From Oscillospiraceae bacterium (GTDB lineage: Bacteria > Bacillota > Clostridia > Oscillospirales > Oscillospiraceae), in the NCBI GenBank assembly GCA_045599385.1, contig JAZRVW010000037.1, forward strand, positions 53-64,052: 64,000 nucleotides of DNA. Reading direction: 5' to 3'. Shown piece by piece: positions 7,039 to 53,789 of this stretch (position 1 is the stretch's first letter; each line of letters starts with the position of its first letter). The notes under the pieces were generated by a model. It was not told the origin of the DNA, made no database searches, and saw only the letters and a program-made list of their open reading frames with translations. Both the position numbers and the translations under genes were made by a program.

Positions 7039-8724
7039 ATGCTTACTCCCTGGGGCGAAAAGCTTGACAGAAGCAATGTGCTTACGGAATATCCCCGTCC
7101 GCAGATGGTGCGCGGCGGCTATGTGAATTTAAACGGCGAATGGGATTACGCCTTCACGGTTGACGGCGTTGAGCCTGACGAGTGGGACGGAAAGATTCTT
7201 GTCCCCTTCTCTCCCGAGTGTGAGCTTTCGGGCGTCGGGCGTATTCTTCGTCCCGGCGAGTATCTGTGGTATCACCGCGAATTTACGCTCCCCGAGCACA
7301 AGGGCAGAGTTCTGCTCCATTTCGGCGCCGTTGACCAGATTTGCACGGTATATTTAAATAATGTAGAGATATGCAGTCACGTGGGCGGTTATCTGCCCTT
7401 TGAGTGCGATATCACCGAGGCGCTTTGCGAGGTAAACCGCCTTGTTGTCTGCGTTATGGACGACTCCGACACGAGCTATCACTCCCGCGGAAAGCAGAAA
7501 TTCAAGCGCGGCGGAATATGGTACACTCCACAGAGCGGCATTTGGCAGACCGTATGGTGCGAGTGCGTTCCCGATGATTATATAAAAGCACTCCGCATTA
7601 CCCCCGATTTCGACGCCGCCTCTGTTCAAATCTCTGCGGAAACCGTCGGCAGCTCCCCTGCCGCTGCGATATTTGAAGGGAAAGAGTATCCCCTGCCCGC
7701 CGTAATCCCCGTTCCCGATTTTGAGGCCTGGACTCCCGACAACCCGAAGCTCTATGATTTTTCCGTCATTTGCGGCAAGGACAAGGTGGACAGTTACTTT
7801 GCCATGCGCAAGTTCTCCGTTGAAAAAGGCGCCGACGGAATAAAGCGTCTTTTCATCAACGGCTCTCCCCTCTTCCACAACGGAATGCTCGACCAGGGCT
7901 ACTGGTCTGACGGTATGTACACAGCCCCCTCCGACGAGGCGATGATTTTCGATATTCAGACCGCTAAGGACATGGGCTTTAATATGCTGCGCAAGCACAT
8001 CAAGGTTGAGCCTCTTCGCTGGTATTATCACTGCGACCGCCTGGGTATGCTGGTATGGCAGGATATGATTAACGGCGGCGGACGGTACAGTCCCGTCATT
8101 GTATCCGCGCCGCTTGTTACGGGCATTCATCTGAAGGATAATCATTACAGGCTCTTCGCCCGCAATGATGCCGAGGGCAGAGTTCAGTATGAGCTTGAGC
8201 TTCGCCAGATGATTAAGCACCTTTACAACTGCCCCTGCATTGCCATGTGGGTACCCTTCAATGAGGGTTGGGGACAGTTCGACTCCGCAAAAATCTGCGG
8301 CATTATCCGCAGCCTCGACAGCACCCGCACCATTGACCATGCTTCAGGCTGGCACGACCAGAAAATCGGGGACATCAAGAGTCTGCACGTTTACTTCAGA
8401 AAGTACGTTCACAAGCAGGACAAGCTGGGCCGCGCCGTTCTTCTCACCGAATTCGGCGGCTACAACTACTACTGCGAGGGTCATTGCTTCGGCAAGCGGG
8501 ATTTCGGATACAGAAAGCTCAAAAGCATTGAGGCACTCACGGAGGATTTGAGAAAGCTTTATTCAGAGCAGATTAAGCCCGCATACGAAAAGGGGCTTGC
8601 CGCCGCGGTTTACACTCAGGTTTCCGACGTTGAGGACGAGGTGAACGGACTCATCACCTATGACAGAAGGATTGTAAAAATAAAACCCGAAACAATGAAA
8701 GACATTATTTCCGTGGATAAATAA
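7039..8724 (+). CDS. glycoside hydrolase family 2 protein (beta-galactosidase/glucuronidase-like)
   Basis: GH2 sugar-binding N-terminus and TIM-barrel motifs (VPFNEGWGQ acid/base region, LTEFGG nucleophile region). GGAGG SD present. Confidence 0.85.
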   Translation: MLTPWGEKLDRSNVLTEYPRPQMVRGGYVNLNGEWDYAFTVDGVEPDEWDGKILVPFSPECELSGVGRILRPGEYLWYHREFTLPEHKGRVLLHFGAVDQICTVYLNNVEICSHVGGYLPFECDITEALCEVNRLVVCVMDDSDTSYHSRGKQKFKRGGIWYTPQSGIWQTVWCECVPDDYIKALRITPDFDAASVQISAETVGSSPAAAIFEGKEYPLPAVIPVPDFEAWTPDNPKLYDFSVICGKDKVDSYFAMRKFSVEKGADGIKRLFINGSPLFHNGMLDQGYWSDGMYTAPSDEAMIFDIQTAKDMGFNMLRKHIKVEPLRWYYHCDRLGMLVWQDMINGGGRYSPVIVSAPLVTGIHLKDNHYRLFARNDAEGRVQYELELRQMIKHLYNCPCIAMWVPFNEGWGQFDSAKICGIIRSLDSTRTIDHASGWHDQKIGDIKSLHVYFRKYVHKQDKLGRAVLLTEFGGYNYYCEGHCFGKRDFGYRKLKSIEALTEDLRKLYSEQIKPAYEKGLAAAVYTQVSDVEDEVNGLITYDRRIVKIKPETMKDIISVDK

Positions 8725-50272: not shown

Positions 50273-50315
50273 TAAAATACGAAAAAAATACACCCTGCAA
50301 CAGCAGGGTGTATTT

Positions 50316-51065
50316 TTATTTATAGATTTCCGCATTAACGAAGATGCGGTCTTTTCGGCTCCTTCCGCCCTCGGCACCAACGACTCCCTTTCCGCAGCCG
50401 CGGAGCGAGATAACATCGCCCTCATGCACGGGGGCATCGGTCTTCATGCACTGGGAATAGTTGAGGCTGGCATCTCCTGCGGAGATATAGCCCGCGGCGC
50501 TTGTGCGGGAGAGACCAAACATTCCCGCAACCACCGCGTCAAAGCGCAGAGATTTCACCGAAAAGCTCACGTGCTTCACCTTGCGCTCGGGTGCCGTGAG
50601 CTCTGAAAGGGAGATTTTGCTCATCTTCACGCCGTATCGCCCTACTTTGTCGAGGCTGTCCAGCAGATGACGCTCCACGGAGGGCAGGCAGAAAATTTCC
50701 GCCGTGTCGCCCTTTACCCATATATCACCCAGCCATTCACGCTTTATGCCGAGACCGAGTATTGCGCCCATATAGTCGCGGTGGCCCGGCTCACCGAAGC
50801 CCGCTTTTGCACGCAGGACTACTATGTTATCCGAGGTAGTGATTTCCTCCTTTTCCGCATAAAATGGCAGGAAGAAGGCCACCTTGCGCTCGCACTCCTC
50901 ATGACCTCCGAACAGCAGCATATTGCAGTCTGGAGTGTATTTTGCCCACTGCAAAAGCGCATACTGCTCCGCGGGTGTGAGAAAATTCGTATGGGTGACG
51001 GTGGACTGCTTTTCGCATCTTGCGCGCAAATCCTCCGCACGTTTTAAAAGCTCATCGTTTTCCAT
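50316..51065 (-). CDS. ylmH: YlmH-type RNA-binding S4-domain protein
   Basis: Collinear with B. subtilis YlmH (HRDYMGAILGLGIKRE, SLRFDAVVAG, GDVISLRGCGK). Its start overlaps the upstream GTPase-NYN gene by 14 nt. Confidence 0.85.
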   Translation of the reverse strand: MENDELLKRAEDLRARCEKQSTVTHTNFLTPAEQYALLQWAKYTPDCNMLLFGGHEECERKVAFFLPFYAEKEEITTSDNIVVLRAKAGFGEPGHRDYMGAILGLGIKREWLGDIWVKGDTAEIFCLPSVERHLLDSLDKVGRYGVKMSKISLSELTAPERKVKHVSFSVKSLRFDAVVAGMFGLSRTSAAGYISAGDASLNYSQCMKTDAPVHEGDVISLRGCGKGVVGAEGGRSRKDRIFVNAEIYK

Positions 51066-53568
51066 CTGTATATTCCGATATCTGTTCCAGAGTATATTTG
51101 AGTTCGTTTACAAATTCGCCGCTTGACATACGCAGAACGCCGCTTCGCAGAGCCGAAAGGCGAATGAGTGAGTCGTTTGTCACAACGCGCACGGCATAGT
51201 TTTTGCCGATGTCATTGGCAAGCTTTTCGATGTACATATCGCCCGTTTCGTTTTCCTTTGTATAGACAACGTGCACCTTTCCGCTGTCGAACTTTTCACC
51301 CATATTGCCCTGCACCTTGTAGCCGTCGAAAACAAGCACAAGCTCACAGTCCCTGAAGCCGCGGTAGCTTCGCAGCATATCAAGAAGCTTTTCTCTCGCA
51401 TCGTCAAGGCTGCGCTTTGCCGTTTCCTTTAAATCGTCCCAGCCGAAAATGACATTGTAGCCGTCGATGATGAGGTATTCACGCTTTGAGGGCGCGACAA
51501 GGTAATCACCGCTTTGCACGCTTGCGGGTTTTGAGTATTCCCGTCTGCGTATTGGACCGAATTCCCGCTCCATTATGGCTTCAAGCTCTTTATCGTCGAT
51601 GCTGAAATTCCTCGGGCGGTGAACGGGCGCGGCTTCCTTTACTCTGCCGAAGCCCGTGTCGATGTGCATATAGCTTTCGACCTCACTCCACTTAATATTC
51701 ACTCCTGCACCGTGGGAGCAGAAGACGGAGTCGGGGGTGTTTTCAAGGTCGGCTTCGGGATTATAGGCAAGCTCCTCAACGACCTTTTCCGCGTTGTGAC
51801 AGGGATAGTAGCCGTCAAGACGGCAGGAAATTCTGCCTTTGCCGTGGGAACAGCCCATAAGAAGCGAGGCATAGCCGTTCATCTCCGAAACGGGCGCAAG
51901 TCCGAACACAACGGAGTTTCCGTTTGCGTCGGTTTCCGTATCGAAGCTTCCGCTCATGGCGCGCACATCGCTTATGACGCGTCCTATGAGCTCGGGAGGA
52001 ACTTCTATGCGGAATGAATACCATGGCTCAAGAAGAATGCTCTCCGCCTTCATAAGTCCCTGACGCACGCCGCGGTAAACAGCCTGACGGAAATCTCCGC
52101 CCTCTGTATGCTTTGGGTGGGCTCTGCCCGCGATGAGCGTTATTTTCATGTCCGTAATCGGCGAACCCGTCAGTACTCCGAGATGCTTTTTCTCGTAAAG
52201 ATGCGTCAGAATGAGATTCTGCCAGTTGCGGTCAAGCTCGTCCTCGGGGCAGTCGGAACAGAACACAAGACCCGCTCCCCTCTCCAGAGGTTCAAGGGCA
52301 AAATGCACCTCGGCATAGTGGCGCAGAGGCTCAAAATGACCCACGCCCTCCACGGCACCTCCGATTGTTTCGCGGTACATAATTCCGCCGTGGTCGATGC
52401 TCACGTCCATGTCAAAGCGCTCTCTGATAATGTCCGTGAGTATCTCCGTCTGCACCTCGCCCATGAGCTGAATGCGTATTTCCCGAAGCTGTTCGTTCCA
52501 CACAAGGCGCAGAAGCGGGTCCTCGTCCTCAAGCACACGGAGCTTCTGAAGGGCTGTGCGTGGGTCGCTGCCCTTCGGCAGATTGACGCGGTAGGCAAGC
52601 ACGGGCTCAAGCTCGGGGCTGTCGCCGTTTTCCTCAAAGCCGAGGCCCTGACCGATATAGGTTTCCGAAAGTCCCTGCACGGCGCAGACGGTGCCTGCCG
52701 TGACCTCCTCGGCGCTTTCATACTTCGCGCCCGAATATATTCTGATGCCGTTTATTTTTTCCTCAACTGGCTTTCCGTTTCTGTCAGGATACCTCAGGGT
52801 GCTTTTTATTTTCAGACTGCCGCCCGTTATCTTCATGCAGGTGAGGCGGTTGCCCTGATTATCCCGCATCATTTTATAAACTCTCGCGCCGAAGACCTCG
52901 GGGTACGCAGGCTCGGCGGTGTAGTTTTCAAGGCACTCTATAAGGCTGTCCACGCCATCAAGCTTAAGTCCCGAACCAAAGAGCATGGGAAAAAGCTTTC
53001 TTTCGCGGATAAGCCGCGTTATATCGGCATTGGAAACGGTGCCGCTTTCCATATAACTCTCCAGCGCCTCATCATCGCACATGGCGATGCTTTCCGTATC
53101 GGAAAGCTCCGTGCAGCGTCCGTCAAGCCGCGTCTTTATATCCGCAAGGACAGCCGCTTTATCGCAGGTATCTATGTCCATCTTTGTTACAAACACAAAG
53201 GTCGGAACATTATGCTTTTGCAGCAGACGCCACAGAGTTTCCGTGTGGGCCTGCACGCCGTCGGTGCCCGAAATCACAAGCAGGGCGTAGTCCAGCACCT
53301 GCAATGTGCGCTCCGTTTCCGCGGAGAAGTCAACGTGCCCCGGCGTGTCAAGGAGGCACAGCTCCATTTGGTCGGTACGGAGCTGCGCCTGCTTTGAAAA
53401 TATGGTTATTCCCCTCTGACGCTCAAGCTCGTGGGTGTCAAGGGCGGTGTCGCGGTGGTCAACTCTGCCGAGCTTACGGATACTTCCGCAGGCATACAGC
53501 AAAGCCTCGGATAAGGTGGTCTTGCCCGCGTCCACATGGGCAAGCACACCGAGTACAAGTTTTTTCAT
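51052..53568 (-). CDS. TetM/EF-G-like translational GTPase fused to a C-terminal Rae1/YacP-type NYN ribonuclease domain
   Basis: G motifs AHVDAGKTT, RGITI, DTPGH and TKMD, with domains II-V collinear with TetM to about aa 640. The C-terminal ~150 aa match YacP/Rae1 motifs (IIDGYNVIFGW, LVFDGYK, YTKENETGDMYIEKLA, VVTNDS). GAGGA SD present. Confidence 0.85.
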   Translation of the reverse strand: MKKLVLGVLAHVDAGKTTLSEALLYACGSIRKLGRVDHRDTALDTHELERQRGITIFSKQAQLRTDQMELCLLDTPGHVDFSAETERTLQVLDYALLVISGTDGVQAHTETLWRLLQKHNVPTFVFVTKMDIDTCDKAAVLADIKTRLDGRCTELSDTESIAMCDDEALESYMESGTVSNADITRLIRERKLFPMLFGSGLKLDGVDSLIECLENYTAEPAYPEVFGARVYKMMRDNQGNRLTCMKITGGSLKIKSTLRYPDRNGKPVEEKINGIRIYSGAKYESAEEVTAGTVCAVQGLSETYIGQGLGFEENGDSPELEPVLAYRVNLPKGSDPRTALQKLRVLEDEDPLLRLVWNEQLREIRIQLMGEVQTEILTDIIRERFDMDVSIDHGGIMYRETIGGAVEGVGHFEPLRHYAEVHFALEPLERGAGLVFCSDCPEDELDRNWQNLILTHLYEKKHLGVLTGSPITDMKITLIAGRAHPKHTEGGDFRQAVYRGVRQGLMKAESILLEPWYSFRIEVPPELIGRVISDVRAMSGSFDTETDANGNSVVFGLAPVSEMNGYASLLMGCSHGKGRISCRLDGYYPCHNAEKVVEELAYNPEADLENTPDSVFCSHGAGVNIKWSEVESYMHIDTGFGRVKEAAPVHRPRNFSIDDKELEAIMEREFGPIRRREYSKPASVQSGDYLVAPSKREYLIIDGYNVIFGWDDLKETAKRSLDDAREKLLDMLRSYRGFRDCELVLVFDGYKVQGNMGEKFDSGKVHVVYTKENETGDMYIEKLANDIGKNYAVRVVTNDSLIRLSALRSGVLRMSSGEFVNELKYTLEQISEYTDGKR

Positions 53569-53580
53569 TTGCTTATCCTC

Positions 53581-53743
53581 ATACTAATACCTAATAAAAA
53601 CATTCAATTAGAAGCGGTGTGATTTCCGCCATGCTGCGTTGAAGCCCTTGGAAATACATAGCCAGTATTCCCTGCGGTCTTCGCCTTGCCTGGCAAAAAT
53701 CATCCTCGCTTCATTCTTAAAGCTTTTTATTAGGTATTAGTAT
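53581..53743. repeat. 163-bp palindromic element with perfect 20-bp terminal inverted repeats (MITE/REP-like or leader structure)
   Basis: ATACTAATACCTAATAAAAA (53581..53600) and its exact reverse complement (53724..53743). The core has further imperfect dyad symmetry. Confidence 0.8.
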
Positions 53744-53760
53744 CAGTTAAAGTTATAATT

Positions 53761-53789
53761 ATTATATAGGATTATTACTCTTCAATCAA
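53761..53789 (-). promoter_or_regulatory. promoter of the GTPase-NYN/ylmH operon
   Basis: Minus strand reads TTGATT-17 nt-TATAAT, about 18 nt upstream of the palindromic element. Confidence 0.5.

Follow-up and report, generated by a model that had tools for sequence, protein, structure and literature searches.

The stretch analysed here, 64,000 nucleotides of contig JAZRVW010000037.1 (positions 53 to 64,052; assembly GCA_045599385.1) from an Oscillospiraceae bacterium and called the window in what follows, carries on its minus strand two overlapping genes. The upstream gene encodes a translational GTPase of the Tet/EF-G type with a Rae1/YacP-type NYN endoribonuclease domain at its C-terminal end, and the downstream gene encodes a homologue of YlmH. 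An earlier note, made from the sequence alone, had described the former as a complete five-domain GTPase body joined in a single uninterrupted frame to a module that matches Bacillus subtilis Rae1/YacP motif for motif, and the latter as a clear YlmH homologue whose start overlaps the stop of the fusion by 14 nt. All of these structural claims have held up, with both open reading frames existing exactly as described, and the parts of the two genes are arranged as follows:

51052..53568, minus strand: fusion gene (838 amino acids), Tet/EF-G-like translational GTPase, tether and Rae1/YacP NYN nuclease
52918..53556, minus strand: G domain, residues 5–217 (Pfam GTP_EFTU, 7e-49)
52657..52887, minus strand: domain II, residues 228–304 (Pfam EF-G_D2, 21.9 bits, just under the cut-off of 27)
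52396..52608, minus strand: domain III, residues 321–391 (Pfam EFG_III, 31.2 bits against a cut-off of 27)
52042..52383, minus strand: domain IV, residues 396–509 (Pfam EFG_IV, 3e-17)
52087–52131, minus strand: family-specific tip loop of domain IV, AGRAHPKHTEGGDFR, residues 480–494
51790..52035, minus strand: domain V, residues 512–593 (Pfam EFG_C, 2e-16)
51658..51789, minus strand: subfamily-specific C-terminal extension of the GTPase body with conserved Cys/His, residues 594–637
51478..51657, minus strand: tether, residues 638–697, two variable low-confidence spacers flanking one conserved helix
51541–51594, minus strand: conserved tether helix DKELEAIMEREFGPIRRR, residues 659–676 (helix 658–670 in the AlphaFold2 model)
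51055..51477, minus strand: Rae1/YacP-type NYN endoribonuclease domain, residues 698–838 (Pfam NYN_YacP, 4e-40)
51052..51065, minus strand: 14-nt overlap ATGGAAAACGATGA of the fusion stop (TGA) and the ylmH start (ATG)
50316..51065, minus strand: ylmH homologue (249 amino acids) with N-terminal domain, YlmH RNA-binding domain and S4-like C-terminal domain

In the GTPase body the motifs G1 (AHVDAGKTT), G2 (RGITI), G3 (DTPGH, with the catalytic His78) and G4 (TKMD) as well as domains II to V follow one another in the order and fold of EF-G, as is characteristic of the EF2 family in the broad sense. GTP_EFTU, EFG_III, EFG_IV and EFG_C score above their Pfam cut-offs, and domain II is also backed by beta-barrel strands in the AlphaFold2 model and by the coverage of Foldseek matches to EF-G. 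The model of the body has the EF-G fold (mean predicted local distance difference test score, pLDDT, 79.9), with EF-G as the top Foldseek matches at E ~1e-52, and its G' insert is shortened to ~75 residues, compared with ~149 at the same place in EF-G. The C-terminal region scores 137.8 bits with the NYN_YacP profile PF05991 (cut-off 24.6), and its alignment with B. subtilis Rae1/YacP of known crystal structure (5MQ8/5MQ9) has E=1.3e-19; the conserved acidic residues are present, with D702, D748, D777 and D799 corresponding to Rae1 D7, D53, D81 and D104 in alignment numbering. Our analysis thus shows that the N-terminal 637 residues represent what should be a complete and catalytically intact Tet/EF-G-like translational GTPase of a distinct subfamily, which also exists in unfused form, and that the C-terminal 140 residues represent a nuclease of the Rae1 type which, by its aligned residues, should likewise be catalytically intact.

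The fusion is widespread. In a scan that took a single genome for each GTDB species it was confirmed in at least 288 species-level genomes; 80 of these loci were fetched, 76 fusion loci had enough downstream sequence for an assessment of ylmH, and 83 full-length fusions were aligned. All 80 fetched loci contain an uninterrupted fusion of 829–949 residues, and a homology search returned more than 120 fusion protein clusters (62–100% identity, 810–867 residues), all with the identical precomputed architecture. An assembly join or a frameshift as the origin of the fusion is ruled out by this one open frame in all fetched loci and clusters. The carriers are Clostridia, i.e. Oscillospiraceae/'Ruminococcaceae', Ca. 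Limivicinus, Lachnospiraceae (Anaerocolumna, Herbinix, Schaedlerella), Bianqueaceae and Ruminococcus, and include the cultured Agathobacter rectalis (933 residues) and Monoglobus pectinilyticus (862 residues), both with the gene on large non-mobilizable replicons. The fusion gene is chromosomal, syntenic and, according to a clade-congruent tree, vertically inherited, with the carriers in the plasmid database being non-mobilizable large replicons. This wide vertical distribution, combined with variable and unrelated housekeeping neighbours, argues for a core cellular role.

Fusion to the GTPase also seems to be the rule for this particular nuclease domain. The nearest relatives of the fused NYN domain are all fused themselves or fragments of fusions, and in a deep search of representatives (~1,200 representatives of the family at E<=1e-10) the NYN domain forms the C-terminus of a longer protein in nearly all of the 150 best matches. 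'Rosetta stone' evidence from split or free-standing relatives had to be rejected, as the standalone-looking nearest NYN proteins, for example L086, L087 and L088, turned out to be fragments. In L086 (3774–6525) GTPase and NYN domain are called separately, with many genes fragmented in a shattered low-quality assembly; in L087 (5850–6060) a frameshift in the tether region splits the copy, with frame 0 running through DKELEEIFLRTYGP into the NYN domain; and L088 consists of 100% identical DNA, i.e. it represents the same data. Fragments of this kind fill the databases as 'NYN domain-containing protein, partial'. No second copy of rae1, ylmH or a Tet-like gene was found within the 64-kb window and no second NYN copy in ~1 Mb of flanks, both being stretches short of whole genomes. 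Two database labels are misleading. A contig labelled 'Bacteroidaceae bacterium' (L018, CAVFGM010000149.1) carries the Oscillospiraceae-type fusion–ylmH operon with typical flanks and is probably mis-binned. A phage-borne copy was also considered and rejected, since the one record examined, the UNVERIFIED 'Bacteriophage sp.' gut-virome entry MT835563.1 (L085), is a mislabelled bacterial contig, which also encodes NAD(P)H-hydrate dehydratase, diaminopimelate epimerase and a citrate transporter.

Both enzymatic centres are strictly conserved. Among the 83 aligned fusions the P-loop, RGITI, DTPGH (His78) and [T/N/S]KMD, in which only the first position of G4 alternates between T, N and S, are invariant, as is each of the four NYN aspartates (83/83). 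The tip loop of domain IV is almost equally constrained, with H484, K486, H487, G491 and F493 found in all 83 proteins and T488, E489, G490 and D492 in 82 of them. This pattern points to both activities as well as probing of the A site being under selection and, as far as an alignment can tell, purifying selection is acting on both enzymatic modules of the fusion.

The region that joins the two modules is built differently. The extension that follows domain V contains C617, H619 and H635, invariant in the 84 sequences of the residue-conservation set for this segment, and just upstream, still in the EFG_C part, C590 (82/84) and H591 (in about half). The extension is shared with an unfused 644-residue protein of Ligilactobacillus salivarius, and AlphaFold2 confidence is low at residues 611–622; the Cys/His segment (residues 590–635, window ~51664–51801) may bind a metal, or may become ordered only on the ribosome. 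Beyond it, a variable spacer, the conserved helix and a second variable spacer lead up to the NYN domain, with pLDDT values below 50 at residues 648–657 and 674–694. With a length varying from 60 to 115 residues across the family and such low-confidence spacers, the joining region has the features expected of a flexible leash and not those of a rigid active site composed of both modules, and the model shows GTPase and nuclease as probably joined by a largely disordered tether with one conserved helix. An internal promoter or start that would yield a free NYN protein was rejected: the promoter-like site at 51599..51572 simply overlaps codons of the A-I-M motif, which is conserved, and fusions of the unpaired clade, i.e. 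those without adjacent ylmH, have Phe in place of M666.

Like the fused domain, B. subtilis Rae1 has an NYN_YacP domain with the four acidic residues (~34% identity), but it is a free protein of ~170 residues, whereas in the fusion the domain forms the C-terminal part of an 838-residue GTPase. By analogy with Rae1, translation-dependent mRNA cleavage at stalled or collided ribosomes would be expected of the fusion. The fused domain is short-tailed compared with Rae1, its residues 699–832 covering only positions 1–136 of the 166-position profile. The tail behind the fourth catalytic aspartate is bimodal in the fusion family, with 36–41 residues, as in the window protein, or 51–73 residues; the short-tailed fusions are without the last ~30 positions of the profile, and the Rae1 tail comprises ~66 residues if a total of 170 is assumed. 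Eleven alignment columns give a clean separation of fusions with an adjacent ylmH from those without, and six of them cluster just past D799, at residues 802–811 (window ~51136–51165). The unpaired fusions keep the canonical Rae1 pattern EQ..II.G..A (B. subtilis SDYTEQWAIFGQGA), in place of which IR.SA.R..V is found in the paired clade. The difference may simply reflect clade membership, or it may mark a surface altered in step with the coupling to ylmH.

An important question is whether the GTPase body belongs to a resistance protein, as its database names imply. NCBI designates fused and unfused members of the subfamily alike as 'TetM/TetW/TetO/TetS family tetracycline resistance ribosomal protection protein', among them the A. 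rectalis fusion (L082, WP_306784676.1), P0004, the unfused L. salivarius protein (L083) and many plasmid-database matches, and the hidden Markov model classification of Atkinson 2015 (PMC4342817) likewise placed the fusion proteins under 'Tet'. The fusion, however, remains far below the curated NCBIfam cut-offs, scoring 379 against 775 with the generic tet_protect model NF012153, its best NCBIfam match, 258.8 against 1100 with the TetM/W model NF033148 and 226.7 against 1420 with NF012155, and it does not reach those for EF-G either (TIGR00484, 279.5 against 659.4; NF009381, 315.8 against 583). It is 30% identical to real Tet(M), compared with 49% to the unfused L. salivarius paralogue, and Tet(M) Y506-Y507-S508-P509 aligns with A483-H484-P485-K486. 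The whole tip loop of domain IV reads AGRAHPKHTEGGDFR in the fusion, YGLYYSPVSTPADFR in Tet(M) and GGKASNVHTVGGDFR in the unfused paralogue. Tet(M) residues Y506, S508 and P509 are those said to dislodge tetracycline. Chromosomal contexts and a clade-congruent tree also stand in contrast to the carriage on mobile elements and patchy horizontal spread of tetracycline protection proteins. By all these comparisons, the GTPase body is a distinct subfamily of the EF2 family and not a resistance protein.

Its relation to known factors is nevertheless close. With Tet(M) and Tet(O) it shares the five-domain EF-G-like body, the reduced G' insert and a collinear alignment in one piece; unlike these, it has a C-terminal extension that is ~40 residues longer and contains the conserved Cys/His, bears a nuclease and resides off mobile elements. 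With EF-G it has in common the fold and the intact GTPase centre, and a domain IV histidine aligns with His573 of Thermus thermophilus EF-G, whereas the halved G' insert, the distinct invariant domain IV loops and the added C-terminal modules set it apart. The unfused 'translation factor GTPase family protein' of L. salivarius UCC118 (pMP118, 644 residues) clearly falls into the same subfamily, with the 49% identity extending over the whole body including the Cys/His extension, but it stops exactly where the tether of the fusion begins, has no nuclease, and carries S, V and V at the fusion-invariant positions H484, K486 and E489. Its gene (L083, 4529–6920) is located on a megaplasmid and diverges from the adjoining rpsN, which encodes ribosomal protein S14; this adjacency is a possible hint at a ribosome-related role of the unfused form. 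Members of the subfamily that go by the name of TetM/TetW/TetO/TetS score far under the curated cut-offs and are devoid of the Tet loop residues, and they are likely, judged on these sequence features, to be false positives in gut resistome surveys. The routine annotation as TetM/TetW family, which is almost certainly wrong, would thus inflate gut resistome counts.

The product of the downstream gene is a true YlmH homologue by two measures, i.e. a score of 46.7 bits with Pfam YlmH_RBD PF17774 (cut-off 23; 4e-12) and a collinear alignment of its residues 14–244 with residues 23–252 of B. subtilis YlmH (PDB 8S1P, E=1.6e-24). Pfam does not report S4 (PF01479) for the window protein at E<=0.01, although this region can be aligned to the S4 portion of YlmH from B. 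subtilis, and the YlmH homologue in L070 scores with S4 at 2.9e-4. With TIGR03069, the equivalog of cyanobacterial Sll1252, the window protein reaches 102 bits against a cut-off of 201.55, i.e. it is related to this family but not a member. ylmH lies directly downstream of the fusion in 46 of the 76 assessable loci, with stop and start overlapping in 40 of these 46; in 31 loci the 14-nt ATG...TGA overlap is identical, usually with no recognisable Shine–Dalgarno sequence, which suggests coupling by reinitiation and thus a synthesis of YlmH that depends on translation of the fusion. In a neighbour-joining tree the paired loci form one clade, whose ancestor covers the 46 pairs, two apparent losses and one truncated contig; ylmH is therefore retained in 46 of the 48 assessable members of this clade, which spans fusion identities down to 54%. 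The pairing to which the earlier note had drawn attention thus occurs well beyond this genome but is restricted to one monophyletic subclade. Read from this tree, the coupling to ylmH is a single, well-retained innovation within an already-fused Oscillospiraceae-type lineage and not a universal property of the fusion. In B. subtilis the ylmH gene belongs to the ylm operon near the dcw cluster, whereas here it is translationally coupled to the fusion; no ylm/dcw cluster was seen near it, and in L070 ylmH adjoins an ATP-binding cassette (ABC) transporter. No mention of a link between ylmH and the fusion was found in the literature searched, and the conserved pairing appears to be unreported.

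The functional part of the earlier note has fared less well. It had regarded the GTPase as a vehicle that delivers an A-site mRNase to the A site. Domain IV of EF-G and Tet-type factors, however, itself occupies the ribosomal A site, from which we infer that the NYN domain cannot be delivered there on the same ribosome, in contradiction to such a role. The premise that Rae1 is an A-site mRNase is outdated as well, because its authors retracted this model in 2025 and now put the Rae1 cut 12 nt upstream of the codon that occupies the A site of a stalled ribosome (PMC12407103). In addition, a preprint of September 2026 describes Rae1-dependent tagging by transfer-messenger RNA (tmRNA) on collided ribosomes (PMC13622287). 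Nor is the architecture, for which the note knew of no functional description, undescribed: Tet-like proteins with a YacP NYN domain were noted in ten Clostridiales species by Atkinson 2015 (PMC4342817), who proposed a test for RNase activity, and the TetM–NYN_YacP fusion was noted again by Matelska et al. 2017 (PMC5499597), with neither study giving experiments on it. What is added here is the monophyletic, overlap-coupled partnership with ylmH and the non-Tet nature of the GTPase. Functional analogies exist in SmrB of E. coli and in Cue2 and NONU-1 of eukaryotes, mRNA endonucleases that act at collided or stalled ribosomes and feed rescue, and in Hbs1–Dom34, in which a translational GTPase engages stalled ribosomes; the SMR fold of the three nucleases is unrelated to NYN. 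To our knowledge, none of these systems has a nuclease covalently joined to a translational GTPase.

In our preferred reading, for which we see the arguments as evenly balanced between right and wrong, the operon encodes a ribosome-targeted Rae1 mRNA endonuclease, i.e. a GTP-gated carrier for the factor-binding site with a tethered nuclease that acts at stalled or collided ribosomes. The GTPase in its GTP form would dock at the ribosomal factor-binding site, where the near-invariant tip of domain IV would probe the A site and decoding centre of a ribosome unable to proceed. Docking would keep the tethered nuclease at high local concentration beside the mRNA, so that it could cut outside the A site. 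The cut would probably fall where the mRNA enters the bound ribosome, or between this ribosome and one that has collided with it; for two collided ribosomes, the entry side would correspond to the stretch of mRNA that comes out of the leading one, where cleavage by free Rae1 is now placed. Release of the factor would follow, and be timed by, ribosome-stimulated GTP hydrolysis, with the cut leaving upstream ribosomes on a truncated message, which would lead to rescue by tmRNA. In the Oscillospiraceae-type clade, YlmH would be made by reinitiation from the same mRNA. YlmH of B. subtilis is an S4-domain factor of ribosome-associated quality control (RQC) that acts with RqcH and supports alanine-tailing on 50S–peptidyl-tRNA complexes (PMC11317155); together with its reinitiated synthesis from the fusion mRNA, this role suggests that in the paired clade the products of the cleavage event would be handed over to RQC. 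The published function of Rae1 at stalled and collided ribosomes feeding tmRNA (PMC12407103, PMC13622287) and that of YlmH in RQC (PMC11317155) support the reading of the operon as a tethered Rae1 system. The more far-reaching proposal that the Oscillospiraceae-type fusion and its co-translated YlmH constitute a self-contained stalled-ribosome module, in which the GTPase reads the A site and licenses a Rae1 cut outside of it before the particles pass to YlmH, is tentative and in our estimate more apt to fail than to hold.

Several points weigh against a tethered Rae1 endonuclease. The geometry of the cut, i.e. which ribosome and which side of the mRNA, is inferred, the RNA substrate of the fusion could be mRNA, rRNA or tRNA, and no experimental study of any member was found in the literature searched. 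The ylmH link is absent from 30 of the 76 loci, including those of the cultured A. rectalis and M. pectinilyticus, so YlmH is not required for the basic function of the fusion. The remodelling of residues 802–811 near the active site could mean an altered specificity in the paired clade. The fusion may replace a standalone rae1 or be an extra paralogue.

Among the rival explanations, a nuclease directed at rRNA or tRNA rather than mRNA, with a role in ribosome maturation, turnover or shutdown, seems improbable to us but is not without arguments. In established structures, the C-terminus of Tet-type factors is close to the 16S rRNA at the decoding centre. An RNase activity on rRNA was proposed by Atkinson 2015 (PMC4342817), and standalone yacP in Bacilli shares an operon with the 23S-processing Mini-III and rlmB (Matelska 2017, PMC5499597), an rlmB adjacency that was also seen in our analysis; YlmH, in turn, has been discussed in connection with 50S biogenesis (PMC11317155). 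Yet the experiments on Rae1 have all shown mRNA cleavage that depends on translation, every Rae1 catalytic residue is conserved in the fusion, and a flexible tether of 60–115 residues suits a mobile substrate better than one fixed site on rRNA. Independently of the other rivals, the nuclease might act as proposed while its gene and ylmH are neighbours by inherited gene order alone, as two genes related to translation that share a transcript by chance in one clade. The two came together only once, the remainder of the fusion family lacks the pairing, ylmH is found elsewhere in unrelated contexts (beside a gene for an ABC transporter in L070, within the ylm/dcw cluster of B. subtilis), and any ancestral arrangement can persist in a monophyletic clade. 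On the other hand, ylmH stayed in place in 46 of 48 loci down to 54% fusion identity while all other neighbours were reshuffled, the overlap is present in 40 of 46 pairs and identical in 31, with no obvious Shine–Dalgarno sequence, and both proteins belong to ribosome-rescue pathways; we therefore consider meaningless synteny rather unlikely.

Two further explanations have very little probability in our view. That the fusion is a tetracycline ribosomal-protection protein, with the nuclease as an accessory to resistance, would agree with tet_protect being the best NCBIfam match, the one-piece collinearity with TetM, the shortened G' insert and the NCBI naming, but it is highly improbable in the face of scores far below the curated cut-offs (379 versus 775 and 258.8 versus 1100), the greater identity to an unfused non-Tet paralogue than to Tet(M) (49% versus 30%), the replacement of YYSP by AHPK and a gene that is chromosomal, vertical and syntenic, with plasmid-database carriers that are non-mobilizable large replicons. 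Still less credence is due to a role in defence, or as a toxin-like nuclease of abortive infection, in which the fusion would stop translation upon infection or stress. Fusions of nucleases and nucleoside triphosphatases are a common theme in defence, a BrnT/BrnA toxin–antitoxin pair is located upstream in A. rectalis, and two 'UNVERIFIED: Bacteriophage sp.' gut-virome records (MT835563.1 and MT835514.1) encode full-length fusions; the gene, however, has no match in PADLOC, is single-copy in the window and vertically inherited, and lies outside variable islands.

The recognition of stalled or collided ribosomes by Rae1 is a current question in a fast-moving field, which saw a revision of the cleavage site in 2025 and the proposal of a collision-rescue pathway in 2026. 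A natural and widely conserved covalent fusion of Rae1 to a GTPase that binds the factor site offers a concrete and testable answer for many abundant gut Clostridia. If the module with YlmH is real, it would physically link the mRNA-cleavage/tmRNA and RQC branches of bacterial ribosome rescue, and the natural fusion would demonstrate that nucleases of the Rae1 type operate from that side of the ribosome to which the factors bind; already the conserved coupling to YlmH hints that mRNA cleavage and RQC are coordinated. The fusion also provides a handle for trapping the nuclease on ribosomes for structural work, using guanosine 5'-(beta,gamma-imido)triphosphate (GDPNP) together with a catalytic-dead mutant.

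The two-gene operon is framed by the following putative signals and contains one inserted element:

53761..53789, minus strand: promoter-like site TTGATT-17-TATAAT of the two-gene operon, a consensus match only (10/12)
53570..53745, minus strand: inserted hairpin element of ~165 nt in the 5' untranslated region (UTR), with 20-nt terminal inverted repeats at 53581–53600 and 53724–53743
50284..50317, minus strand: terminator-like hairpin (15-bp stem and T-run) directly after ylmH, facing a convergent NAD synthase gene

The promoter-like sequence is kept upstream of the orthologues in L001 and L002. The terminal inverted repeats of the hairpin element match perfectly over their 20 nt (ATACTAATACCTAATAAAAA), its RNA folding energy is -80.2 kcal/mol (z=-10.8), and its 3' arm abuts the Shine–Dalgarno sequence. 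It is missing at this site in the closest relative, L001, which has a 79%-identical copy downstream of ylmH (8025–8185), and a partial copy of the element occurs in L023. The hairpin looks like a mobile repeat of this lineage, similar to miniature inverted-repeat transposable elements (MITE) or repetitive extragenic palindromes (REP), and is not part of the conserved fusion–ylmH system. A regulatory leader or attenuator was rejected, since the hairpin and the upstream region have no match in Rfam and the hairpin is a lineage-specific insertion absent in the closest relative. Neighbouring genes, most of which were identified by eye from the sequence, vary between loci (two-component system, peptidase T, major facilitator superfamily (MFS) transporter, hydrolases, VanW-like protein), with no other conserved partner found among them. 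In the window, the operon is flanked by genes for a class II aminoacyl-tRNA synthetase, NAD synthase, an alpha/beta-hydrolase and an MFS transporter.

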